Positions 37,092-48,971 of a DNA stretch of 64,000 bases are shown here, in pieces. Within the stretch, counting starts at the first letter, position 1; each line of letters begins with the position of its first letter. The notes below the pieces were generated by a model. It had not been told where the DNA came from. It saw nothing but the letters and a program-made list of their open reading frames with translations, and made no database searches. A program made the translations under genes and the position numbers. This stretch comes from an uncultured Desulfobacteraceae bacterium (GTDB lineage Bacteria; Desulfobacterota; Syntrophobacteria; BM002). The stretch lies in the NCBI GenBank assembly GCA_964346905.1, contig CAYFXH010000001.1:1280-65279 (forward strand), written 5' to 3'.

Positions 37092-37691
37092 ATGATAAAA
37101 GCTATCATTTTCGATTTCGGCCGGGTCATCTCGACCCAAAAGCCGCCATCCCTCTTCAGCGGCTATGAAAAGGATTTGGGACTCCCCCCCGGAACGCTCA
37201 ACCCTATTATGTTCGCTAGCCGGGCCTGGCAAGATACCTTGATTGGCCACAAGACCATTGAAGAGTTCTGGGACGAAATTGGGCCCAAGCTTGGACTGAA
37301 TACTCCCGAGGAAATTGAGGAGTTCCGCCGTCGGTACCGGGCTGATGAAGCGGTTAACGAGGGTGTGCTGAATCTACTCCATCGGCTGCACGGCCATTAC
37401 AAGCTGGCGGTACTCTCCAATGCACCGCCTGGCCTGGGCCAATGGCTGGGCGACTGGGGGATGCTCCATCTGTTCGATGTGCTGTTCTGCTCCGGAGACG
37501 AAGGCGTGGTAAAGCCAGAGCCGGCTGCTTTTACTATCACCCTAGAACGACTCGGCGTGGAGCCCAATGAAGCAGTGTTCATTGACGATACACTGGAACA
37601 CGTGGAGGCAGCCAGGACACTGGGGCTGCACGGAATACTGTTCACCACCGCAGAAGCTCTGGAGGCGGAATTAGATGGCTTACTTGCTTGA
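37092..37691 (+). CDS. HAD-superfamily hydrolase (subfamily IA)
   Basis: 199 aa; motif I IKAIIFDFGRV (DxD-type), SNAPP motif II, GDE...D motif IV region. Confidence 0.75.
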   Translation: MIKAIIFDFGRVISTQKPPSLFSGYEKDLGLPPGTLNPIMFASRAWQDTLIGHKTIEEFWDEIGPKLGLNTPEEIEEFRRRYRADEAVNEGVLNLLHRLHGHYKLAVLSNAPPGLGQWLGDWGMLHLFDVLFCSGDEGVVKPEPAAFTITLERLGVEPNEAVFIDDTLEHVEAARTLGLHGILFTTAEALEAELDGLLA

Positions 37692-37712: not shown

Positions 37713-38363
37713 ATGGCGACCGTTGTGAGCAATGACCACATTAAAATTGATCGGTTAGAATTGGGGCCGTTCGGCACTAATGGGTACATCTTAACCTGCC
37801 AAAAGACACAAGAGAGTGTGGTGATTGACGCCCCCGGCCAAGTCGACAGAGTCCTGGAAGCGCTGGAGGATACACACCCCCAATACATCCTAATTACTCA
37901 TGACCATTTTGATCATGTGGGTGGTCTTTCCCGGTTGAAATCAGCCTTGAACGTTCCCGTCGCTGCCCACCCTGCAGATGGTGACGGGCTTCCCCTACCT
38001 GCGGATATTCTCCTACATGACGGTGAGGTACTATCCTTTGGAGCCAGAGAGCTTACGGTGTTGCACACACCGGGCCACACTCTGGGAAGCATATGCTTGC
38101 TGACCGGGAATTACTTGATTGCGGGGGATACGTTATTTCCGGGAGGTCCGGGTAAAACCCAATCACCCGCAGACTTCCGGCAGATTATTGAATCCATAAC
38201 CCAGAAGATTTTCACATTGCCGGACAACACCCACGTGTATCCCGGACACGGGGAAGCAACAACGGTCAAGGAGGCAAAAAAACAGTACGAGGTTTTCTCA
38301 ACCCGACCGCACGATCCGGATCTTTGCGGGGATGTGGTTTGGGATAAATCGCAGAGCGCATAG
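37713..38363 (+). CDS. MBL-fold metallo-hydrolase
   Basis: 216 aa; ITHDHFDHVGG (HxHxDH) and downstream His/Asp ligands. Confidence 0.8.
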   Translation: MATVVSNDHIKIDRLELGPFGTNGYILTCQKTQESVVIDAPGQVDRVLEALEDTHPQYILITHDHFDHVGGLSRLKSALNVPVAAHPADGDGLPLPADILLHDGEVLSFGARELTVLHTPGHTLGSICLLTGNYLIAGDTLFPGGPGKTQSPADFRQIIESITQKIFTLPDNTHVYPGHGEATTVKEAKKQYEVFSTRPHDPDLCGDVVWDKSQSA

Positions 38364-38498
38364 CGCAGAGCGTATATTCAAAAACTGCAAAGTTATTTTA
38401 AATATCGCAAACAAATGCTAGTCGTTGAATTTACCAGAATGATTTTAGTCTAGCCGTTTTTCTAAACGCTATGCGCTTTGCGCTCTGCGCTATGCGAG
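38350..38498. repeat. Inverted heptamer repeat (cgcagagcgcatagcgcagagcg ... cgctatgcgctttgcgctctgcgctatgcg) bracketing the convergent gene ends
   Basis: Arms at 38350-38373 and 38467-38498 are near-perfect reverse complements; candidate bidirectional terminator/REP element. Confidence 0.5.
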
Positions 38499-38499
38499 C

Positions 38500-39195
38500 T
38501 TACCAACCTATTACCACTCGGTGAAAACCTTCCGCCAGTTCAAAATCCTCCCCTTCAGCCATCTCCCTGCACCGCTCTCTCAGCCAATCTTCAGGGTCCG
38601 GATTGGGGAATCCCTGTACCTGGCTCTGGTGGCAACGTAGGGCCGCAATTTTAAGATCAAAGGTATCGGTGATGTCCGAGCGATAGTTAATGTCTTCCGC
38701 CGCCCAGAATAAGATCTCATCTACATTGTGAGGCTCCAAACCTTCCTCTAACAAATCAGGGTAGGCAAGATGATCCCGAGAGTACGGGAAAACTGCATCG
38801 AGAGTAACCTGCCCGGCAATGCGATGGTCGCGATGCCAGAGGTAACGACGGTAGGGATCCGAGGTCACCACGATCCTGGGCTGGTACATGCGTATAAAGC
38901 GAACGATCTGCTTACGAAATTCCGGCGTGTCTTCCAACTCCTGATCCGGGTATCCCAGGAATATTACTTCTCGGACCCCAAGGATCTTGGCCGCAGCCTG
39001 TTGCTCCTTTTTTCTGATTTCGGCCAATTGTTCAGGTTTGAGGCTCCGGTCGCTGGTTCCCTTGTCGCCATTGGTGCAGACAACGTAGACAACCTGCTTT
39101 CCTTCTCTGGTCCAGCGCGCTACTGTTCCTGCCACCCCGAATTCGGCGTCATCCGGATGAGCTGTTACCACCAGTACGTCCGTTGCTTTCGTCAC
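38500..39195 (-). CDS. PIG-L/LmbE-family N-acetylglucosaminyl deacetylase (MshB/BshB-like)
   Basis: Start chosen at GTG (Val71 of ORF 38500..39405) with AGGAGG RBS 6 nt upstream, giving 232 aa; signature VLVVTAHPDDAEFGVAGT and downstream His/Asp. Confidence 0.75.
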   Translation of the reverse strand: MTKATDVLVVTAHPDDAEFGVAGTVARWTREGKQVVYVVCTNGDKGTSDRSLKPEQLAEIRKKEQQAAAKILGVREVIFLGYPDQELEDTPEFRKQIVRFIRMYQPRIVVTSDPYRRYLWHRDHRIAGQVTLDAVFPYSRDHLAYPDLLEEGLEPHNVDEILFWAAEDINYRSDITDTFDLKIAALRCHQSQVQGFPNPDPEDWLRERCREMAEGEDFELAEGFHRVVIGW

Positions 39196-39250
39196 AACGA
39201 ACCTCCTAAAAAGTCGAGACTCGAGTAGTTCAATGAAATACCGAATGATG

Positions 39251-40459
39251 TTACCTGAGTATGGCTGTGTATTCTTCCAGCATAGCGGACGCCACATTTG
39301 CCCAGCTAAATTGGAGGACCGACGCGCGAATTGCTTCAGCGGATAGTCCGTTGGAGTTCGAGATAAAAGCTTCGATACCGTTTGCCAGTAAACGGGGAGA
39401 ACCATTGGTCACCAGATGTCCTGTCTCACCTTGGCGGAGGATGCTCTCCATAGCCCCCACCTTCGTTGCCACCACCGGTGTGCCAGAGGCGAGCGATTCC
39501 AAGGCCACCAGCCCAAAGCTCTCGTAGTAAGAGGGCACAACCAAGACATCTGCGGCATTGTAGTACGGCGGCAGGTTATCCTGTTCGATCCTTCCCACAA
39601 AGGTCACGGAATCCTGAATACCCAACTTCCAGGATAATCTTTGGAGGTTTTGCGACTCCGGTGTATGATGGCCATCGCCACCGACAATTACCAGTCGAAG
39701 CCTTTGATGATTCAGAAGGCGGGCCACGGCCTCAAGCAATCGGTCTATTCCCTTCAATGGCGCAAATCTGCCCACGAACAACACAATCGACTCATCCTCC
39801 GCAAAACCCAACTGCTCTCGCGCCCTCGCTTTGTCCCATGGGCGGAAAAGATCCAGGTTGACACCACACGGTACAACGCCAATTGTCGCAGAGGACGCCC
39901 CATAGTGTTGCATTAGATGGTCTCTTTCTCTGTGGGTGGCGACGAGAATGCGGTTACAATTATGTGCCAAATGCTGTTCGGTGGCTGTACGCAGTTCGGG
40001 TTCTTTCTCCGCACCAACTGTACTGTTCTTTACCGCGCCAACAGTATGGAACATGAAAAGATGAGGGACTTCCCAGCGTTCATGGGCCCATTTCCCCACC
40101 CGACCGGAGAGCCAGTAGTTACTATGTACAAGGTCATAGTCCAACGACTCGTATGTTCTAAATCTTTCCAGCTCCCGGAAAAAATCAGGCAGATAGGGAT
40201 AAAGTGCCAATTTGTTCATATCACCGTTGTTCCCGGCTTTTAGATGAATGAGTCGGACGTTCTCACATAGTTCAACTCTCTGAGTATCAGCTGCATTACT
40301 GAGACGCGTATAAATGTCGACCAAATGGCCGCGGTTTCCCAGCTCCCGGGCAAGCTCACGGACATAGACACTCATGCCTCCGGTGTCTTTTGTCCCTAAT
40401 TCTCCTAGCGGACTTGAATGAACGCTCAACATTGCAATTCTTAACTGTTCTGCTTCCAC
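39251..40459 (-). CDS. GT4 glycosyltransferase of the MshA/BshA (N-acetylglucosaminyl-transferase) family
   Basis: 402 aa; IAMLSVHSSPLGELGTKDTGGMSVYV, DLVHSNYWLSG, HTVGAVKNS, PSYYESFGLVALESLASGTPVVA align block-for-block with Corynebacterium MshA (from memory). Confidence 0.75.
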   Translation of the reverse strand: MEAEQLRIAMLSVHSSPLGELGTKDTGGMSVYVRELARELGNRGHLVDIYTRLSNAADTQRVELCENVRLIHLKAGNNGDMNKLALYPYLPDFFRELERFRTYESLDYDLVHSNYWLSGRVGKWAHERWEVPHLFMFHTVGAVKNSTVGAEKEPELRTATEQHLAHNCNRILVATHRERDHLMQHYGASSATIGVVPCGVNLDLFRPWDKARAREQLGFAEDESIVLFVGRFAPLKGIDRLLEAVARLLNHQRLRLVIVGGDGHHTPESQNLQRLSWKLGIQDSVTFVGRIEQDNLPPYYNAADVLVVPSYYESFGLVALESLASGTPVVATKVGAMESILRQGETGHLVTNGSPRLLANGIEAFISNSNGLSAEAIRASVLQFSWANVASAMLEEYTAILR

Positions 40460-40503
40460 GTGCGCTACCTCTCGATTCAGTGCTTGTTTACCGTTCAGAT
40501 TGT

Positions 40504-41481
40504 TCAGAGTTTAATCTGGCATCTATACAAGGTAACAGGTTTACCTCCCAACCGATGTTTGTAATCCTCTGCGCCTTTGAGAAAATCGTACCTCTCTTTT
40601 CCTCTCTGAATGCTTTCTTGAATGGTGAATACCTTACTGAGCAGACCCACGTTCAGCGAACTGAATCTGCCGTCATACCCATTGTTGTAAAGATATATCG
40701 TCGAATTATAATCAAAACACATCACCGCGGCTGCAGGTGTCCCGTCAAGTTCGAGGATAAACAGTTGCAATAGCTTGAGCGTTGCCATTGTCTCGGCCAG
40801 TGACCGAAAAAAAGAAGCCATCTGACTAGTCATAAAAGCTGCCTTATCGGCTCGACTCAATCCAAACAGCGCCAAAAAGGTGTCCATTTCCTCCAGGACT
40901 TCTCTTACATCCTCCACAACCCGATATCTGATGTCTGCAGCCTCATCTAATCTCCTGAGTTTTCGTCTCACTTCGTGCCGCTGTTTTCCGGTCAACATGT
41001 GCAAGAATTCATCCCAGCTTGCCGGCAACTCTAACTCCAGGGTAACATCCTCGGGATCGCAAAAAACCTCGCACTCCAGCGCTTTGGCCACGTTGACAAA
41101 ATCGGTGAGCACTTTAGAGTCGGCACGTACGGAGTTCAGATCCAGGTGAGTGATACCCTGCTCCCTTAAATGATTGATGAGAATCTCAGAAAACTCCCCT
41201 ACCCTCCCAGGGGTGACGATGAAATCTTGGTAATCGCAAACATCAGGATCGCCCATGAAGCGGGCCTCTCTTCCTTCCAGCAAAAACGGCGCGATACCGA
41301 TCACTTCTTCCCCGTCTTTCACCGCGTAGAGGGAGGGAGCCAATTCAGCACTGAATACGTTCCACCATACCTCCAGCCAGCCGGGCAAAACAAAGAGACA
41401 ATCCCACTCCAGGACATATCCCGGATCTAGCCAGTAAGAGGCGAGATTTTCAAAGGTCTCTTCAGTTACGGTATATGCCAT
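40504..41481 (-). CDS. FemAB/CelD-like tandem-GNAT acyltransferase (Acetyltransf_6-like)
   Basis: Start Met27 of ORF 40504..41559 (GAAGGTGA RBS). ~326 aa with two GNAT-like halves; architecture typical of aminoacyl-tRNA-dependent transferases (FemX/FemAB) and CelD; no precise motif verified. Confidence 0.5.
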   Translation of the reverse strand: MAYTVTEETFENLASYWLDPGYVLEWDCLFVLPGWLEVWWNVFSAELAPSLYAVKDGEEVIGIAPFLLEGREARFMGDPDVCDYQDFIVTPGRVGEFSEILINHLREQGITHLDLNSVRADSKVLTDFVNVAKALECEVFCDPEDVTLELELPASWDEFLHMLTGKQRHEVRRKLRRLDEAADIRYRVVEDVREVLEEMDTFLALFGLSRADKAAFMTSQMASFFRSLAETMATLKLLQLFILELDGTPAAAVMCFDYNSTIYLYNNGYDGRFSSLNVGLLSKVFTIQESIQRGKERYDFLKGAEDYKHRLGGKPVTLYRCQIKL

Positions 41482-41574
41482 GGTCACCTTCGGAGTATTG
41501 GTACTGTAACGATTGCGGATTGCGGAATTTGGTGATTTCCCTGCTTTGCAATCCTTCATGCTGAAATCTGTAAT

Positions 41575-42006
41575 CTACAAGCTGACCTTGCCGCCGCTTC
41601 TAAAATCTCCACCACCCGTACCAAGTCTTCCAAGGGAGCTGCTATTGGCTCTCCCGTCAACAAATGATCGGCTAGGTTCCGATGAAAAAGATAATGCTCT
41701 CGTTTGGGCAATGCCAGTTTTTGGGTGATAAGTAGTACCTACTGGGATCGCATCATGGGAATGCCAGTAGCCACAGGGGTGCGCAAAACTGCCCACGAAG
41801 GTCTCCATGTAAAAGAGGTCGCCAATCAGCCCATGAGCGAGTGCTTGTTTAATCGCCAAGTAGTCCACGTCCCACCGCCGGTTTTGGTGGCAGCTCAGAT
41901 GCACCCGCTGTTTTTTGGCCATCTCCACCATGGCGGCTGTTTCCTTTTGGCTCAATGCCAGGGGCTTTTCACAGACCACATGCTTCCCTGCTGCCATCAT
42001 TTGCAA
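41575..42006 (-). pseudogene. Gfo/Idh/MocA-family oxidoreductase remnant (N-terminal Rossmann region and C-terminal domain missing)
   Basis: ORF begins at AAGKHVVCEKPLAL, the motif that normally lies ~90 aa into Gfo/Idh/MocA proteins. Only 75 nt separate it from the upstream gene. C-terminal 40 aa are low-complexity, suggesting frameshift. Confidence 0.5.
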
Positions 42007-42080
42007 AGATAAGTTTGCATGGGAGTTCGGTGGGGTGGCTAATCATTTTCCTTTAACCCTCACAGTTCCTGGTTTCTTGC

Positions 42081-43334
42081 CTATGACTTCAGTCGCCACT
42101 GCGCGCCATCTCCAGTATCCTCAACTATTATGTCTGCTCGCTGGAGGCTGTCGCGGATGACGTCGGCTTCTTGCCATTGTTTCTTTTGTCGGAACTCCTG
42201 GCGCAACTTGAGTAGCTCTTCCACGAGAGGGGCAAGACAATCAGCCCTATTTTTTGGAGAAGCCTCAAGTCTCATTCCTAAAATGACTATCAAATCTCGA
42301 AAAATTTCTTTAGCTTGGGAAATGAATTCCTCGTTTTCATGATCCTGCTTGGCTCTCCAGATAACCCGATCAAGCTCCAAAAGAGCGTTGGTGGCTTCTT
42401 TCGGTTCGTCTTTTTCGAGGCCGAGCCGAAAGGTGTTTTCGATTGCATGAATGGTATCCCAGAAGGACTCTGCATCAACATCAGAGGTAGGTTTGAAAAT
42501 CGCTTGCTTTGGGGTTGTCGGTTTCCACTCCTTACCCATCTCTCCTCCACGGAGAACATCAAGAGAAAAACGGTCACCCTTTTCAAAGACCAACTCAGCT
42601 CCCCGACAACGTAGGGTCGCAGTGCCGAGTCCCTTAATGAGAGCTTCTTCTTTTTCAAAATCAATGAGGCAGGCCGTATGTTCATCCAAGCCAAAAATGG
42701 ATACATCCTTGGGCAAGAGGGACTCGAGCTTGCGAAAGCGCGATTCACCCATGAAACAGAAACGGGTGTCGTGAGTCCCACCTTCAGCGTTGTTCCAATG
42801 GGGAATCACCACCAGATTGAAGCCGAAGTGGTGGAGTATATTCATCCCCTCCACCCAATGCAGGTCTTCGCCCACCTTGTAAATCTCATAGACTGGGAGA
42901 GTGAAGCGTCCCAGGGTCAGGGCGGCAGCACTGGCAGCCACTAGGCAACCGCCGGATTCGATCTGCTTTATCAAGATTTCAGGTACGGGTGTTTGCTGCC
43001 ACTGGCGAAGGGCATACGTCGGACTTCCTGGGCCAATCAGAATAAAGTCGGCCTCCCGCAGCGTATGAAAGGCCTGCTCGGCTTCGTATGGTGTGATCCT
43101 CTCGTTTGACTGAAACGAGGCTGTTGACATGGGTTGTTGAACATGGATACGAAAATAATCCAAGGCTCTCTTGGATATCTGATCAACATTAAGCTGAAAG
43201 CCAGCCGGCGTATCGAGAAATACGGCTCGGGGATCTTGAGCAAATCCCGCCAGTAACTCCTTGTGAACTTCAACCATGGTTGCAGTGAGTTCACCTGAGC
43301 CCATGAGGGCGATAATTCCTTTCCTTGATGACAC
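42081..43334 (-). CDS. Fusion protein: peptidase S51/cyanophycinase-like (class I GATase-like) N-terminal domain + C-terminal tRNA-anticodon-binding region of cysteinyl-tRNA synthetase
   Basis: 417 aa. N-terminal IALMGSGE...FLDTPAGF...ILIGPGSPTYALR...GGCLVAASAAALTLG resembles the S51 fold. C-terminal ...LRQEFRQKKQWQEADVIRDSLQRADIIVEDTGDGAQWRLKS aligns with E. coli CysRS C-terminus ...[39 protein letters not shown] (from memory). No HIGH or KMSKS motifs present. Confidence 0.6.
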   Translation of the reverse strand: MSSRKGIIALMGSGELTATMVEVHKELLAGFAQDPRAVFLDTPAGFQLNVDQISKRALDYFRIHVQQPMSTASFQSNERITPYEAEQAFHTLREADFILIGPGSPTYALRQWQQTPVPEILIKQIESGGCLVAASAAALTLGRFTLPVYEIYKVGEDLHWVEGMNILHHFGFNLVVIPHWNNAEGGTHDTRFCFMGESRFRKLESLLPKDVSIFGLDEHTACLIDFEKEEALIKGLGTATLRCRGAELVFEKGDRFSLDVLRGGEMGKEWKPTTPKQAIFKPTSDVDAESFWDTIHAIENTFRLGLEKDEPKEATNALLELDRVIWRAKQDHENEEFISQAKEIFRDLIVILGMRLEASPKNRADCLAPLVEELLKLRQEFRQKKQWQEADVIRDSLQRADIIVEDTGDGAQWRLKS

Positions 43335-43749
43335 GCCGAACTTCTTTCCAGTGAGCCACAGAGGCCACTGATCATTGGATTGAGTTCAGAGACTGCTGAG
43401 CTACCGTCTCCATTGATAATCAAAACCGACACCCAACTGGATAAGATAAGCCACTTTTGTTAACTAGTAAAGGTCACACCATGTTCTTTGCTGAAGAGAG
43501 AGCTTCACTTTGCGCATTGGACGGGATGCTTCCATGTTTAGTAGTCTCTGCCAAGATCTATCCCAGACGGCAATCGCTGGGGGTACAGAGGACGTCTTGA
43601 TCACACACGAAGAGCTCGGCAGGTAAGATGAGACCCGTGCAACGTGTTTCCGGTTGGCACACCCCTTGCTTCTGTATATGTATTGCAATCTGTGGCAACC
43701 AGTAGTCTGCACCATTCACTGGTCTACTTTGGTGAAGCGAGAACGAGAA

Positions 43750-43980
43750 ATGACGTACATTTGCATAAAATGTAGAAAAACCTGGGTCAGTGGAACTCAT
43801 ACTGATCAGTATTCCGGGGGATTGTGCCAAGCGTGCACTACGGAGTACATTAGAGAGAGGCAAAAAAGCCACGGGTTTCATGATTGCTTCAAACGGGCAG
43901 TTGAAGTCTGTTCAAGAGACGAATGCAGTTACTGGCTCTTGTGCAACAGAGATCTTATGGAGAAGAGGGGATGTGCGTGA
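43750..43980 (+). CDS. Small Cys-rich (9 Cys / 76 aa) putative zinc-ribbon protein
   Basis: Internal Met of ORF 43654..43980; CIKC...CQAC...HDC...C...DEC pattern; weak RBS, so uncertain. Confidence 0.25.
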   Translation: MTYICIKCRKTWVSGTHTDQYSGGLCQACTTEYIRERQKSHGFHDCFKRAVEVCSRDECSYWLLCNRDLMEKRGCA

Positions 43981-44107
43981 ACCTGTGACTTTCTACTCAA
44001 CCTCTAAATCGGTCTCTTGGTACCGGTAACGTTAAGGGGCAAAACATACGGCAAGAGGGACAGCCATGAAGGTATACCTGATCAATGGTATATGTTCATG
44101 ACCGTCC

Positions 44108-45208
44108 CTACTTCGAGGCCAGCATGTAACCTTTCCGGGCCATGTGGCTGGTTAGCAGACCGTCTAGACCGTTGTAAAACACCAGGAGAATGAGGGCAAC
44201 GATAAGACTCTCCTGCTCTCCGCTCAAAAACGCCAATATCACCACCGCCCAAATCACCATCGAGCCCAATAATTCCAGACTGCCTAACAACGTGTGACCG
44301 AGATACATGTCTCTCAATCCGGGCAATAACAAAGATCTCAAAAAAGCTGTCTTTGGGTTTTTAAACTCTGCCTGGCATTTTGGGCATGCAAGCAAGTTTT
44401 TCGCAAGCGGCACGTAACAGGAGGGACAGAGGTCTTCAACCGCAGCTTCCGCTGTCTTTGCGGCCTTGAAAAGACGCTGCCTTTCCCGAACAAATTGTTG
44501 AAAATCTTTCGCCATGTACCGCTTCATCCCGGTAAAGATACGACGTTTGCCTTTCTGCCGGTGGAGTACGAGACTCGTGCCGAACAGACCCGTCCCAACT
44601 TTGCTGATGGTCTCATAGGGTATCTGGAAAAAGTAGTGGGTCGGCTTTGAAATTTTTTGATTTACATTGATGAACAGGAGTCTCTGACTGGTGCCCACCA
44701 CTGCATAGTGATTGTACAGCGTCGTCAAGTAGCCGTTTCCAAAAATAATCTCTGATGGGTAATAGGCCGTTGCTTTACCAATTCGCATGGCTTGCTCATC
44801 GCTTAGTAGCATTTTATCCAGCGTTCCATGCACCGCCTTAAGAATTTTGACCTTAAACGTGTTTCTTCTGGTCTTATAGGCTCCTTTTTTACTGGGGGTA
44901 ATCATTCCATCAAGCTTCAGTTTTTCAGAGGTCAGATTCTGCAACTCCGGGTATTCAGTGATGAGAGTTAATTCAGACTCAGACCGATCTCTTTCCTGGG
45001 GAATTTGGTAGTTTGCATCATTGGACGGAGGTGTTACAGCAGCAAAGTCGGACACCATCTGGGCATCCAGAATCATGTCTTGCTCCCCATGCGGCTCAAC
45101 GAGAAATTTTCCTCCACATCTTTTGCAACTGGCTTGAACGGGCTTTTCCGGGATTTTGTCGCTTGCAACCTTGTACTGAGTGTTACAGATGGGACAAACA
45201 ATCTGCAT
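44108..45208 (-). CDS. Membrane protein with N-terminal MJ0042-type zinc ribbon, central bacterial PH-like domain, second CxxC...CxxC pair and C-terminal TM helices
   Basis: MQIVCPICNTQYKV...CKRCGGKF; later CPSCYVPLAKNLLACPKCQAEF; hydrophobic C-terminus. Confidence 0.5.
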   Translation of the reverse strand: MQIVCPICNTQYKVASDKIPEKPVQASCKRCGGKFLVEPHGEQDMILDAQMVSDFAAVTPPSNDANYQIPQERDRSESELTLITEYPELQNLTSEKLKLDGMITPSKKGAYKTRRNTFKVKILKAVHGTLDKMLLSDEQAMRIGKATAYYPSEIIFGNGYLTTLYNHYAVVGTSQRLLFINVNQKISKPTHYFFQIPYETISKVGTGLFGTSLVLHRQKGKRRIFTGMKRYMAKDFQQFVRERQRLFKAAKTAEAAVEDLCPSCYVPLAKNLLACPKCQAEFKNPKTAFLRSLLLPGLRDMYLGHTLLGSLELLGSMVIWAVVILAFLSGEQESLIVALILLVFYNGLDGLLTSHMARKGYMLASK

Positions 45209-45478
45209 GGCGCCCCCCTTGGGTTTGAATTGTTATGAATCTCTTCTGTTCCTGGTTGCCAGGGCTACTAGGTGAGTTGGCCCATGACCCCGTGGTAATG
45301 CAAACCGCATGCCGACCTCCCTCAATGCATGATCTTTTGGATGGTCCGAAGACCTAGAAGTCCATGGCTTTACCAGGCAGGATGCACCAGCTATTCCCCC
45401 CTCTACGATGACCTGGTTTGCAAATGTGCTGGTCTGCTTTATTATTAAAGATACTCGAGAAGACAGGTACAATTGACA

Positions 45479-46522
45479 ATGTCGAAATTTCCTCTCGTAA
45501 TAGCTTTTTTAGCCGCGGTTTTGTTTGGCGGAGCAACACCCGCAAGTAAGGTATTGTTGCGGGCTTTGCCAACATTTCAGCTTGCAGGGCTCCTCTACCT
45601 CGGCGCTGCCCTCGGCGTCCTACCCCTGATCGCCCATGAGGGGACGTTTTCGTGGCCTTGGAGTCTTGACCGCAAAACCGGTCTCCGACTTGTTGGAGCA
45701 ATCAGCTTTGGGGGTGTGGTGGGCCCGGTGTTCTTACTTTTCGGCCTGCGGCTCGCCTCGGCTGCTTCGGTATCTTTGTGGCTCAATTTGGAACTCATTG
45801 CCACTGTACTTCTCGGCTATCTCGTTTTTCGCGACCAGCTAACCGCATACGGATGGGTTGCCGCCATAGGAACGCTTGCAGCAGCGACGCTATTGTCCGC
45901 ATCCGAGGGATTGGCCGGGGTGAAGGCTGGTCTGCTCGTCACCCTGGCCTGTTTTTGCTGGGGCTTGGATAATCACCTCACCGCCCTGATCACCGGTATC
46001 ACTCCGGCACAGACCACCTTTTGGAAGGGCTTGGTTGCGGGTATGGTGAACCTCGCCATTGGAACAAGATTGGACCCCTACACTGCGACAATCTCTTTGA
46101 CAGCCGCGGCCATCGCCGTCGGTATTCTTTCCTATGGAATAAGTATCGTGCTCTATATCACTTCGGCACAAAAGCTGGGTGCCACGAGAAGTCAAATCAT
46201 TTTTTCCAGTTCGCCATTTTTGGGGGTCATCCTGGCTGCAATTTTCCTGAGAGAAACCATTTCTGTGGCTCAAATAGTGGCCTCACTGGTTATCATTACT
46301 TCCCTTGCGTTTCTGTTCTTCGAGCAACATGCGCACGTGCATCATCATGACGCCACGGCACACGAGCATTGGCATCGCCATGACGACGGCCATCACGACC
46401 ACGTATTCCCAGGAATGCCTCGGGCTATATATCACAGTCACTGGCACGAGCATAAAGCCATGACCCATAAGCATGCTCACCGGCCCGATCCATATCACCG
46501 GCATAAACACGGGGAAGACTAA
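45479..46522 (+). CDS. EamA/DMT-superfamily transporter with His-rich C-terminal tail
   Basis: 10 TM-like segments, then HAHVHHHDATAHEHWHRHDDGHHDH...HSHWHEHKAMTHKHAHRPDPYHRHKHGED; ORF-track frame begins at TTG 45473. Confidence 0.65.
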   Translation: MSKFPLVIAFLAAVLFGGATPASKVLLRALPTFQLAGLLYLGAALGVLPLIAHEGTFSWPWSLDRKTGLRLVGAISFGGVVGPVFLLFGLRLASAASVSLWLNLELIATVLLGYLVFRDQLTAYGWVAAIGTLAAATLLSASEGLAGVKAGLLVTLACFCWGLDNHLTALITGITPAQTTFWKGLVAGMVNLAIGTRLDPYTATISLTAAAIAVGILSYGISIVLYITSAQKLGATRSQIIFSSSPFLGVILAAIFLRETISVAQIVASLVIITSLAFLFFEQHAHVHHHDATAHEHWHRHDDGHHDHVFPGMPRAIYHSHWHEHKAMTHKHAHRPDPYHRHKHGED

Positions 46523-46921: not shown

Positions 46922-47698
46922 ATGTGGCAGACAGAGATGAAGAAGATGGTTGGGTTGCTTGTGACGGTACTGTGGCTGGTCTTTTTTGCTCACCAGACGG
47001 CAACCGCTCACTTCGGTATGATCATTCCTTCAGATGAGATGGTTATGAGGGGGGAAAGCCCGAATGTCGCCGTGCAGCTCATGTTCTGGCACCCCTTCGA
47101 AGGTCAGGGAATGGAACTGGCGAAGCCCGCACAATTTGGCGTGGTGGCAAACGGCAGCAAGCAGGACTTGTTACATACGCTCAGTTCTAGAAAGATCAAA
47201 GAACATACCACCTGGCAGACTACCTATCGAATCAGGCGGCCCGGACTTTATATTTTTTACATGGAGCCGCAGCCTTACTTGGAGGCTGCGGAAAATTCTT
47301 ACATCATTCATTACACCAAGACCGTAGTTGCAGCTTATGGTAAGGACGAAGGCTGGGATGAACCCATCGGCCTGAAAACCGAAATCGTCCCCCTAAGCAG
47401 ACCTTTTGGCCTTTACGTGACCAATGTGTTTCAAGGGGTGGTTATGCGCAATGGGAAACCCGTGGCCGGTGTCGAGGTGGAAGTCGAGTACTTCAATGTG
47501 ACTGGTACGTATTCCGCCCCTACGGACTACATGGTGACCCAGACCACTAGGACCGACCCGAACGGGGTTTTTACTTACGCGGTCCCCAAGGCTGGCTGGT
47601 GGGGTTTCGCCGCCATCACCACTGATGATCACCAAATCAACGGTAAAGATGTGGAAATTGGCGCTGTGCTATGGGTCAAGTTCCATCTGATGCAATAG
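46922..47698 (+). CDS. DUF4198-family periplasmic component of Ni/Co ECF transporter (NikK-like)
   Basis: 258 aa, signal peptide, adjacent and upstream of cbiM in same orientation; start may be Met6. Confidence 0.55.
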
Positions 47699-47707
47699 GA
47701 AAGAGCC

Positions 47708-48322
47708 ATGCATATTTCTGAAGGAATACTGTCAGCACCCGTGCTGATTACCGGTGCAGCCCTCACAGCTGCCGGTGTTGCCGTGGGGCTAAGGAAGATG
47801 GACAATGAGAATATTCCCCGGGTTGCCGTCTTGACCTCGGCGTTTTTCGTCGCTTCACTGATACGTGTACCTCTGGGCCCTTCCGCTGTGCATCTGGTTT
47901 TAAACGGCCTTCTCGGGTTGGTACTTGGCTGGGCCGCATTTCCGGCTATTCTTGTGGGCGTGGCGCTCCAAGCCCTCCTTTTTCAGTTTGGCGGGTTGAC
48001 TACTCTGGGTATAAATACCTTCATCATGGCCATGCCCGCTATCCTCTGCTATTACTTCTTCGCCAGAACCATTATCCAGAAACAATCAGGGGTGGCCATG
48101 GCCCTTGCCTTTGCCAGCGGCTTTGTTGCAATCTTTCTGAGTGCTCTCCTGTTGGCCCTATCTCTAAGATTTACGGGAGAATCGTTTCTCGAGGCAGCCA
48201 AGCTTCTCGTGGTAGCACACCTTCCCGTGATGGTTCTCGAGGGTGCTGTTGCCGCCTTCTGTTTGGCGTTCCTCATGAAGGTCAAACCAGATCTCCTGGG
48301 AGCACCTCATGCCACCGGGTAG
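47708..48322 (+). CDS. cbiM: ECF transporter substrate-specific component CbiM/NikM
   Basis: N-terminal MHISEGIL (hallmark MHIxEG), 5-6 TM helices. Confidence 0.85.
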   Translation: MHISEGILSAPVLITGAALTAAGVAVGLRKMDNENIPRVAVLTSAFFVASLIRVPLGPSAVHLVLNGLLGLVLGWAAFPAILVGVALQALLFQFGGLTTLGINTFIMAMPAILCYYFFARTIIQKQSGVAMALAFASGFVAIFLSALLLALSLRFTGESFLEAAKLLVVAHLPVMVLEGAVAAFCLAFLMKVKPDLLGAPHATG

Positions 48323-48971
48323 GAAACGGAGTCTTTTTCAGAAGGCGGCCATTGCCAGCTTCGTTGGAATCTTGCTCGCCTCGACGCTGATGGCCACCAG
48401 TCTCCTGGCCCACAAGGTGAACGTGTTTGCCTGGGTTGAGGGTGACATAATCTTCGTGGAGGGCTATTTCCCCGGTGGCAAAAACGCGCAGAATTCACTG
48501 GTGGAAGTATTCAACCAGGCTGGAGCCAAACTTTTGGAAGGAAGAACCAACGAAAAGGGCGAGTTCTCCTTCAAGACTCCAGAAAAGACCGATCTTAAGA
48601 TCGTGCTCAGCGCCGGGATGGAGCACAGGAACGACTTCACTGTGTTTGCCAGCGACTTTGCAGAAACAGCGCCATCGCCGGCCGCACCCTTCCGAGAACT
48701 CCAGGAGAGCGAGACACTCTCCGGTGAGGTTGATGAGGACATGCGGCGGCTGGAAGCACTAATCAACCGAACGTTGGACCGCAAGCTTACCCCGGTAATC
48801 AAACTCATCCGCGACTCCAGGAGAGAGGGCCCGACTTTTTCTGAGATCGTTGGAGGTATTGGTTATATTTTCGGACTCGTTGGGGTGGCGCTTTATTTTA
48901 GTAATAGAAAAAAGAAAGAAGGCGGTCAGCGGTCAGCGGTCAGCGGTCAGCAAGATACGGACGGGCAGTAA
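48309..48971 (+). CDS. CbiN/NikL-like accessory membrane protein with periplasmic beta-sandwich-like domain
   Basis: N-terminal TM, HKVNVFAWVEGDIIFVEGYF...EKGEFSFKTPEKTDLKIVL, C-terminal TM; position between cbiM and cbiQ. Confidence 0.45.
   Translation: MPPGRKRSLFQKAAIASFVGILLASTLMATSLLAHKVNVFAWVEGDIIFVEGYFPGGKNAQNSLVEVFNQAGAKLLEGRTNEKGEFSFKTPEKTDLKIVLSAGMEHRNDFTVFASDFAETAPSPAAPFRELQESETLSGEVDEDMRRLEALINRTLDRKLTPVIKLIRDSRREGPTFSEIVGGIGYIFGLVGVALYFSNRKKKEGGQRSAVSGQQDTDGQ

Follow-up and report, generated by a model that had tools for sequence, protein, structure and literature searches.

The gene described here lies at positions 43334 to 42081 on the minus strand of a 64-kb stretch of DNA from an uncultured Desulfobacteraceae bacterium, hereafter the window, and encodes a protein of 417 amino acids with a GTG start. 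According to Pfam, NCBIfam, an AlphaFold2 model and Foldseek, the whole gene codes for an S51-fold hydrolase domain that is fused to the anticodon-binding module of cysteinyl-tRNA synthetase (CysRS). Judged by its sequence, this fusion protein is neither a CysRS nor MshC, since the catalytic core was looked for and is absent; it belongs with the S51-fold enzymes, as a divergent member that carries the anticodon module of CysRS. We think it probable that the protein is a tRNA-Cys binder with a role in cysteine-thiol metabolism. Our favoured explanation, held tentatively and at slightly under an even chance, is that it represents a tRNA-Cys-anchored acyl enzyme in a tRNA-dependent, mycothiol-like thiol pathway.

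Domain architecture and conserved residues

Homologues of the fusion protein share its start position and open with MSSKKG. Its structure is an AlphaFold2 model built on 35 homologues (predicted local distance difference test score, pLDDT, 79.8), in which an alpha/beta domain of residues 1-262 is followed by a disordered stretch at about 263-290 and then by five helices and a beta-hairpin. On the minus strand of the window, the S51 (PepE/cyanophycinase-like) domain of residues 1-262, assigned by Foldseek and a HMMER alignment to 6nqc, covers positions 42549-43334. The variable linker of residues ~263-290 (42465-42548) is predicted to be disordered, with a pLDDT below 50 at residues 267-269 and 273-288; it is poorly conserved, carries indels in family alignments and is likely a flexible tether between the S51 domain and the tail. 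The tail itself comprises a helical bundle (residues ~291-360; 42255-42464), equivalent to the DALR_2/helical domain of CysRS according to the helices of the model and a weak DALR_2 match, and the CysS_C alpha/beta anticodon-binding subdomain (residues ~361-417; 42084-42254), recognized by Pfam CysS_C and by alignment to 1li5 and 1u0b. Both domains are matched far beyond chance, and the two-domain architecture is found in 135 of 151 cluster representatives at 50% identity. An earlier note, made from the bare sequence, had proposed this combination, and Foldseek bears it out, since the N-terminal domain leads to S51 structures and the tail to the CysRS-tRNA-Cys complex 1u0b. Neither an unrelated coiled coil as the tail nor a stand-alone peptidase E agrees with these results.

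Residues 9-225 match Pfam Peptidase_S51 (PF03575) at E 8e-5 and 22.8 bits, just below the cut-off of 23.9, and a precomputed match to the same family is present in some close relatives. The top Foldseek match of the domain is 6nqc (E 7e-14, TM 0.80 on the target), a 'cyanophycinase-like exopeptidase' of an acI-B1 actinobacterium; further matches are PepE (6a4r, E 1e-11) and the cyanophycinases 3en0 (E 6e-10) and 7uqw. The S51-like fold that the earlier note had read from the N-terminal part is confirmed by these structures, and the domain is a divergent S51 subfamily. The suspected nucleophile elbow was recovered as well: S135 in 'AASAAA' aligns with the Ser of 'CSAGA' in 6nqc, and in the same HMMER alignment His179 (IPHWN) and Glu218 (LDEHT) fall on the PH and DE motifs. 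The SAG, PH and DE motifs form the Ser-His-Glu triad of PepE and CphB. Among the cluster representatives the triad is nearly invariant (S135 in 148/149, H179 in 149/151, E218 in 139/148), and invariant motifs of the domain are GSGE (12-15), GPGSP (101-105) and PHWNNAEGG-HDT--C (178-193). Within the loop after the catalytic His, N182, D189 and T190 are conserved at 98% or more and C193 in 139 of 149 representatives. Since the triad and this loop are as conserved as the anticodon residues discussed below, the protein is predicted to be an enzyme and not merely a binding protein.

The fusion protein shares fold and aligned triad with the S51 peptidases (PepE, the cyanophycinases CphB/CphE and 6NQC), whereas its sequence identity to the solved members is only 12-22%. 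Its long invariant loop WNNAEGG-HDT--C after the catalytic His is missing in the 6nqc alignment. In addition, unlike S51 peptidases, it carries a tRNA-binding-type tail and lacks a gene context of cyanophycin or peptide utilization.

For the tail, Pfam CysS_C matches residues 367-414 at E 3.7e-10 and 40.2 bits (cut-off 23), and DALR_2 gives a weak match at residues 313-356, in a region where the model places helices at 291-307, 311-330 and 335-358. Residues 282-414 align with residues 338-488 of the CysRS of the same genome (31% identity, E 4e-12), and the family profile of the fusion matches residues 353-486 of the CysRS chain 8qhp at E 1.8e-8. The CysRS-type tail inferred by eye in the earlier note is therefore genuine. 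The same applies to the reported absence of the HIGH and KMSKS motifs: the Pfam scan gave no match to the class I Rossmann catalytic domain PF01406, and TIGR00435 (cysS) reaches 33.8 bits against a cut-off of 340 and matches only at model positions 362-464 of 466. Both motifs are absent because the entire Rossmann core is absent. Compared with E. coli CysRS (1LI5/1U0B), the C-terminal ~130 residues of the fusion are homologous to the DALR_2 and CysS_C domains and retain the contact residues, whereas the Rossmann domain, HIGH/KMSKS, the zinc site and the CP and SC-fold domains of CysRS are all missing. Without the Rossmann domain and its motifs the protein should be unable to activate cysteine. 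A separate, normal full-length CysRS (590 bits) is encoded on another contig of the same genome.

In the E. coli CysRS-tRNA-Cys complex, Arg427 and Asp436 form hydrogen bonds to G34, Trp432 stacks, and a water network includes Arg423 (PMC12684709). Arg427, Trp432, Asp436 and Arg439 are the anticodon-domain residues selected for mutagenesis with the aim of re-targeting the E. coli enzyme (PMC13449415). By HMMER alignment to 1li5, R378, R382, W387, D391 and R394 of the fusion correspond to E. coli R423, R427, W432, D436 and R439. No exchange of R378, R382, D391 or R394 was seen in 13 distant relatives (33-51% identity), among them members without the helical bundle, which is missing in some distant parts of the family. 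Among 150 representatives of 50% identity clusters, R378 is kept in 134/140, R382 in 136/140, D391 in 133/138 and R394 in 134/138, and position 387 is aromatic in 132/137. The tail is variable elsewhere and best conserved at its anticodon-contact residues (95-97%); we consider this good, though indirect, evidence that the ligand of the tail would still be the GCA anticodon loop.

The operon and its counterparts in relatives

The fusion gene is the first gene of an operon; a dehydrogenase remnant and the genes of a tandem-GNAT protein, a GT4 glycosyltransferase and a PIG-L protein lie downstream on the same strand. The tandem-GNAT gene (40504-41559, with a start probably near 41487) encodes a FemX-like, putative aminoacyl-tRNA-dependent transferase according to Pfam Acetyltransf_6 (E 9e-29), FemAB_like and fold matches, and is called Fem-like below. 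Its model has a pLDDT of 91.8, with residues 1-26 disordered. After VIA re-ranking, the 23 best structural matches are aminoacyl-tRNA-dependent transferases, except for the uncharacterized 2hqy. FemX 6snr (Z 21.4), FemA 1lrz (21.3) and Sbb17/Sba18 (20.4-21.1; Sbb17 21.1) lead, followed by Weissella FemX (~19.4) and MprF aminoacyl-phosphatidylglycerol synthase domains (about 17-19), with an overall span of Z 16.7-21.4 from FemX to MprF, while tandem GNATs that depend on CoA rank later (Z 13.6-15.4; MshD 13.6-14.7). The cut-off of Pfam FemAB_like is reached only by one orthologue (locus L068, 28.8 bits), and the family profile found no match among PDB sequences, so that the link to Fem enzymes is made by fold comparison alone. 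Y333 and K334 are invariant near the C-terminus; going by alignment ranges only, the conserved C-terminal Lys would correspond to Lys305 of FemX.

The structures of Sbb17 and Sba18 were solved with streptothrisamine bound. For the related Orf11, glycylation of this amino-sugar compound with Gly-tRNA as the donor is reported (PMC12945691), which is a direct precedent for the transfer of a tRNA-borne amino acid onto an amine of the glucosamine (GlcN) type. The FemABX enzymes, Orf11, Sbb17 and Sba18 included, acylate amines non-ribosomally from aminoacyl-tRNA, and the immediate downstream gene of the fusion has their fold; the fusion protein itself differs from them in fold and in its presumed chemistry, a covalent serine acyl-enzyme. 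Fem enzymes contact the acceptor stem of the tRNA, and the anticodon is not mentioned for them (PMC12945691). An aminoacyl-tRNA transferase fold next to a predicted tRNA-Cys anticodon reader gives the operon two tRNA-connected proteins.

The GT4 glycosyltransferase (39251-40459) is MshA-like: it scores 366.8 bits on TIGR03449 (mycothiol_MshA; cut-off 462.5), with the next family at 120.7, and matches C. glutamicum MshA (3c48) over its full length at E 2.4e-75. It also matches the cyanobacterial GT4 6kih (Tll1590) at E 2e-66 and PimA at ~6e-11. We infer that it moves N-acetylglucosamine (GlcNAc) from UDP-GlcNAc onto a sugar or inositol phosphate acceptor. The following gene (38500-39405) codes for an N-deacetylase of the PIG-L/LmbE family (Pfam PIG-L E 1e-36) that resembles MshB and BshB, with 109 bits on BshB1, 91 on BshB2, 71 on Mca and 59 on MshB, all under the cut-offs; its PDB matches are the deacetylases 8bgn, 6p2t and 1q74. 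The longest open reading frame (ORF) overlaps the GT4 gene, which makes a start further downstream probable. A HAD-family phosphatase gene (37092-37691, plus strand; NCBIfam HAD-IA), which converges on the operon, is a candidate for the dephosphorylation step.

What such a gene set leaves uncovered is the attachment of cysteine. In the genome of the window, which is 95.5% complete, MshC was not found, as TIGR03447 reached more than 29 bits only with the canonical CysRS (318 bits, cut-off 485), and BshC and an E. coli-type GshA gave no match either. Consequently, the gap is the enzyme that activates and adds cysteine. The fusion protein is not an MshC by family assignment, since TIGR03447 is not among its NCBIfam matches. 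Three genes of the Ino1 type are present in the genome. The assembly holds one tRNA-Cys(GCA) and a tRNA-Sec(UCA) (C246:3004-3079 and elsewhere) among 38 tRNA genes, an incomplete set; the tRNA-Sec implies that the organism uses selenocysteine. Synthesis of cysteine on tRNA by a SepRS/SepCysS-type system was rejected, as a normal CysRS is present and the operon gives no sign of such a system; no further search for it was made.

The operon is not restricted to this genome. We sampled 80 loci from species genomes of Desulfobacterota and Nitrospirota, in which many misses are due to short contigs. Near the fusion gene, a Fem-like gene was found in 55, a GT4 gene in 52 and a PIG-L gene in 42 loci, usually directly downstream and on the same strand. 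A HAD gene lies near the cluster in 14/80 loci. In 38 loci, two genes for IolG-like dehydrogenases stand between the fusion gene and the Fem-like, GT4 and PIG-L genes. The most complete arrangement is found on a metagenome contig of 181 kb (L110), whose fusion protein is a homologue of 45% identity; there, fusion, Fem-like, GT4, PIG-L, inositol-1-phosphate synthase and HAD genes form one operon. From its gene content, this operon covers all the steps of mycothiol synthesis that lead to GlcN-inositol. A 172-aa ORF with a weak Peptidase_S51 match (L110:8399-8917 (+)) immediately precedes the fusion gene in L110 and may be a duplicated fragment.

In a sample of 301 genomes of the phylum to which the window belongs, the fusion occurs in 38 and the Fem-like gene in 61, and 34 of the 38 fusion carriers have both. 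Fem-like and GT4 genes are fused to a single protein of ~705 aa in one family (L090:8144-10261, G136; also L091 and L092), a Rosetta-stone link between their two steps. At 50% identity, the fusion family comprises 1979 cluster representatives at E <= 1e-3 and 460 at E <= 1e-30. Relatives also occur in Chloroflexota and Actinomycetota (ESM Atlas clusters), so that members span at least four phyla. The carrier genomes that could be judged by a record name are all metagenome-assembled genomes or uncultured symbionts.

Distant homologues (34-41% identity; metagenome contigs L104-L108 and L112) follow directly after clpS and a DUF2017 gene, and one cluster of them holds members labelled Acidimicrobiales/Actinomycetota. 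DUF2017 is AosR (Rv1332), an actinomycete redox regulator that, together with SigH, activates the mec-cysO-cysM cysteine pathway and is needed to sustain mycothiol under oxidative stress (PMC8280819). Thus two independent contexts, the operon and the clpS-AosR neighbourhood, point to cysteine and thiol homeostasis. Conserved neighbours in the latter are haem A/O synthesis genes and an AhpC/redoxin gene, and in L104 the same pair of Gfo/Idh/MocA genes and an alpha/beta hydrolase gene stand directly upstream of the fusion.

A second-subtype complete CysRS (422-427 bits on TIGR00435) was found in 14 of the 27 Fem-positive genomes without the fusion, versus none of the 38 fusion-bearing ones, a contrast that rests on about 3 versus about 10 families, is confounded by phylogeny and concerns a phylum in which second CysRS copies are common. 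Within one family, second-subtype CysRS and fusion alternate between genera. This hints that the two are alternative dedicated tRNA-Cys handlers for the pathway. The second-subtype enzyme was also considered as an MshC-like ligase replacing the fusion and was rejected, since Pfam and NCBIfam describe it as a complete CysRS. In all seven sampled genomes of one family it carries a C-terminal GT2 domain (729 aa; L113:5933-8122 (-), G024); these genomes possess the Fem-like/GT4 pair and lack the S51-anticodon fusion, and a fusion between a synthetase and a glycosyltransferase is odd in itself. Other extra copies, in some genomes of the phylum, consist of a PALP (CysK-like) domain fused to a full-length CysRS, with 782 and 832 aa (L114:1123-3471 (+); L117:6381-8879 (-)).

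The first of the two IolG-like Gfo/Idh/MocA dehydrogenase genes is represented by a remnant, a 143-aa ORF at 41575-42006 (minus strand) that Pfam matches at profile positions 80-117 only. The dehydrogenase region as a whole (41575-42067) is a mosaic remnant, as the relative L010 has intact genes for 550 and 356 aa, and three deletions relative to a genome of the same genus (L118) account for it. Independent unitigs of DNA run X1 bridge all junctions of the remnant, which is thus not a binning artefact. The IolG-like dehydrogenases seem dispensable for the cluster. A metallo-beta-lactamase-fold hydrolase is encoded at 37713-38363 (plus strand; Pfam Lactamase_B) and recurs beside the cluster in 15/80 loci and in L097 and L101. 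An Rfam scan of positions 38000-45500 gave no match, and neither a T-box nor a riboswitch was found upstream; promoter and terminator scans yielded nothing above shuffled expectation. The 64-kb window contains no tRNA gene, and in 40 related loci no tRNA gene is linked to the cluster, only two tRNA-Val genes being found. An uptake-like cluster for Ni/Co (DUF4198, CbiM and the following ORF) is located at 46922-48971 (+). A few of the closest relatives share CbiM and an EamA transporter gene (45473-46522 in the window) near the operon, each in four loci.

A putative tRNA-dependent cysteine step and its alternatives

S51 enzymes are exopeptidases that cut after an N-terminal residue with a free amine via a serine acyl-enzyme. 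The cysteinyl ester on A76 of a charged tRNA is a close analogue of their substrate, the acyl bond of a free-amine N-terminal residue, and a serine aminoacyl-enzyme formed from aminoacyl-tRNA has its precedent in the cyclodipeptide synthases. A route of the following kind could be envisioned. Ino1 would make inositol-1-phosphate, GT4 would add GlcNAc to it, and a phosphatase together with the PIG-L enzyme would produce GlcN-inositol with a free amine. The tail of the fusion protein would dock on the GCA anticodon of Cys-tRNA-Cys charged by the normal CysRS, so that the S51 domain, on its flexible tether of 25-50 residues, would engage the cysteinyl ester at the 3' end (A76). Docking of the tail and action of the S51 domain at the aminoacyl end are the better supported part of this scheme. 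Ser135 would take the cysteinyl group as an acyl-enzyme and hand it to the GlcN amine, which would equal an ATP-free MshC step. Standing in for MshD, the FemX-like enzyme would finally attach a second aminoacyl group as a cap or extension of the product. That the fusion protein takes part in the synthesis of a thiol of the Cys-GlcN-inositol type by acting on the cysteinyl ester appears to us almost as likely as the opposite, while it is rather unlikely that the fusion, rather than the Fem-like enzyme, catalyses the cysteine transfer. The more general idea of the earlier note, that such a protein recruits tRNA-Cys or Cys-tRNA-Cys for a non-ribosomal reaction or hydrolyses an aminoacyl bond, is supported at the level of sequence; it is strengthened by the near-invariant G34-contact residues and by the Fem-like gene nearby in 55/80 loci.

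Several points weigh against the proposed acyl-enzyme. To our knowledge, no S51 enzyme acts on aminoacyl-tRNA. In accordance, none is included in a 2026 review of aminoacyl-tRNA-dependent enzymes (PMC12945691). The FemX-like neighbour could itself transfer cysteine from Cys-tRNA. Furthermore, the Fem-like/GT4 pair occurs without the fusion in 27 of the 61 Fem-positive genomes, which makes the pair the older core and the fusion a frequent, yet not obligatory, addition, and in two families the fusion gene is unlinked to the cluster. In one unlinked-fusion family, a PNP_UDP_1 gene of the nucleoside phosphorylase/nucleosidase superfamily follows the fusion in two genera (L100:9700-10443 (+); L102:6036-6773 (-)). 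GT4 and PIG-L proteins stay below the curated cut-offs of MshA and of MshB/BshB, respectively, and the acceptor could differ from inositol phosphate. Finally, among the five Nitrospirota genomes with the fusion, two possess in addition a CysRS paralogue without anticodon-binding domain. These paralogues of 405-411 aa have an MshC-like architecture and are encoded directly downstream of a MATE efflux transporter gene (L119:8006-9241 (+); L120:7429-8646 (+)).

The role of the neighbour leads to the alternative that we rate highest, although still as improbable: the Fem-like enzyme would be the cysteinyl transferase, using Cys-tRNA-Cys and GlcN-inositol, and the fusion protein a tRNA-Cys-directed helper or quality-control hydrolase. 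It might compete with EF-Tu by capturing tRNA-Cys or presenting it to the pathway, or remove the acyl group from aberrant tRNA-Cys species (S-thiolated, persulfidated or mischarged) in thiol-rich cells. The fold of the Fem-like protein, nearest to aminoacyl-tRNA transferases of which some were solved with an amino-sugar intermediate bound, fits well to such a division of labour, as does the existence of the Fem-like/GT4 module without the fusion, even as a single protein. The putative Actinomycetota context, which lacks a nearby Fem-like gene and has a redox/cysteine regulator, is likewise counted in its favour. The second-subtype CysRS, present in 14/27 fusion-negative and 0/38 fusion-bearing genomes, could be a dedicated tRNA-Cys handler just as the fusion could; however, this complementary distribution of about 10 versus 3 families is confounded by phylogeny. 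A near-invariant catalytic triad would have no evident purpose in a protein that only presents tRNA, and the S51 fold is not known among trans-editing factors.

Two further explanations appear much less likely still, and about equally so. The fusion protein might sense the status of tRNA-Cys, such that uncharged tRNA-Cys switches on an S51 exopeptidase that frees cysteine from Cys-GlcN-inositol or another cysteinyl store. This logic would be like that of the GCN2 HisRS-like domain, Cys-GlcN-inositol would offer the free-amine N-terminal residue that S51 exopeptidases need, and both genomic contexts concern cysteine and thiol homeostasis. Yet the charging of a tRNA cannot be read by an anticodon-binding module alone, a biosynthetic operon that opens with the gene of a degradative enzyme would be unusual, and no bacterial precedent is known. 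Alternatively, the protein could be an ordinary S51 peptidase of dipeptidase or cyanophycinase type, with the CysS_C-type tail co-opted for structure, dimerization or general RNA binding, in an operon whose product is not a thiol but, for instance, a glycoconjugate or glycolipid head group that carries an aminoacyl residue. The database names 'peptidase E' and 'cyanophycinase-like exopeptidase' of relatives agree with this, to judge by the NCBI name 'CysS/YqeB C-terminal domain', the small domain occurs in other proteins too, and the structures close to the Fem-like protein include MprF-like lipid aminoacylation domains. In addition, GT4 and PIG-L enzymes catalyse the first two steps in the synthesis of GlcN-inositol lipids of the glycosylphosphatidylinositol (GPI) type. 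However, conservation of the five contact residues at 95-97%, even where the helical bundle is missing, is hard to explain without a GCA anticodon ligand. Moreover, the GT4 enzyme resembles MshA (367 bits, E 2e-75), whose acceptor is a soluble inositol phosphate, far more than it resembles PimA-type lipid glycosyltransferases (PimA ~6e-11), and the HAD phosphatase within the L110 operon fits a soluble route.

Relation to known systems and significance

With mycothiol and bacillithiol synthesis (MshA-A2-B-C-D; BshA-B-C), the proposed acyl-enzyme pathway would share a GT4 GlcNAc transferase, a PIG-L enzyme and a step that adds cysteine. Ino1 and a phosphatase inside the L110 operon resemble the mycothiol-type set. 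In contrast, MshC or BshC and MshD appear to be replaced by the fusion and the Fem-like protein, and the carriers in Desulfobacterota and Nitrospirota are not typical mycothiol producers. MshC, the cysteine:GlcN-inositol ligase of mycothiol synthesis, is a CysRS paralogue. Both proteins descend in part from CysRS, and the fusion gene sits where a mycothiol-like set needs its cysteine-adding enzyme. However, MshC keeps the ATP-dependent catalytic half of CysRS (411-position model) whereas the fusion keeps the opposite, anticodon-binding half and, unlike MshC, would have to use cysteine that is pre-activated on tRNA; it is not a member of the MshC family. With tRNA-directed hydrolases and sensors such as the Cys-tRNA-Pro deacylase YbaK, AlaX, D-Tyr-tRNA deacylase and the HisRS-like domain of GCN2, the fusion shares the concept of an aaRS-derived or tRNA-specific module that directs a non-synthetase activity. 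These proteins have an unrelated fold and are not known to contain an S51 domain or a CysRS anticodon module.

In the databases, relatives are named 'peptidase E', 'cyanophycinase-like exopeptidase', 'CysS/YqeB C-terminal domain-containing protein' or 'hypothetical'. A description of the family was not found in the literature that we searched for the architecture, CysS_C/PF23493, tRNA-dependent thiol synthesis, mycothiol genes in these phyla and 6NQC. Fem/GNAT enzymes, cyclodipeptide synthases and PEARLs are among the aminoacyl-tRNA-dependent enzymes covered by the 2026 review, which includes nothing like the fusion (PMC12945691). We therefore see the novelty in a variation on a mycothiol/bacillithiol-type pathway combined with non-ribosomal use of aminoacyl-tRNA, by a family that is not described in the searched literature. 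If the S51 domain is a transferase, it could represent a categorically new enzyme class. The strongest form of this claim, which we consider doubtful, is that the fusion founds a class of aminoacyl-tRNA-dependent enzymes that form a serine acyl-enzyme from Cys-tRNA-Cys selected by its anticodon and ligate the cysteine to GlcN-inositol. A route to a mycothiol-like thiol that is independent of ATP and coupled to translation would then be open to Desulfobacterota, Nitrospirota, Chloroflexota and some Actinomycetota.

The low-molecular-weight thiols of many anaerobes, including sulfate reducers and Nitrospirota, are poorly known. For these organisms the operon provides a concrete candidate, a conjugate of GlcN-inositol and cysteine in which the cysteine would come from tRNA. 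If this is true, the fusion would add a new architecture to the few non-ribosomal users of aminoacyl-tRNA (Fem/GNAT, cyclodipeptide synthases, PEARLs, MprF and L/F-transferase). Likewise, the half of CysRS that is left unused by MshC would have been recycled, in a mirror image of that enzyme, and the synthesis of the thiol buffer would be tied directly to the charging state of tRNA-Cys.

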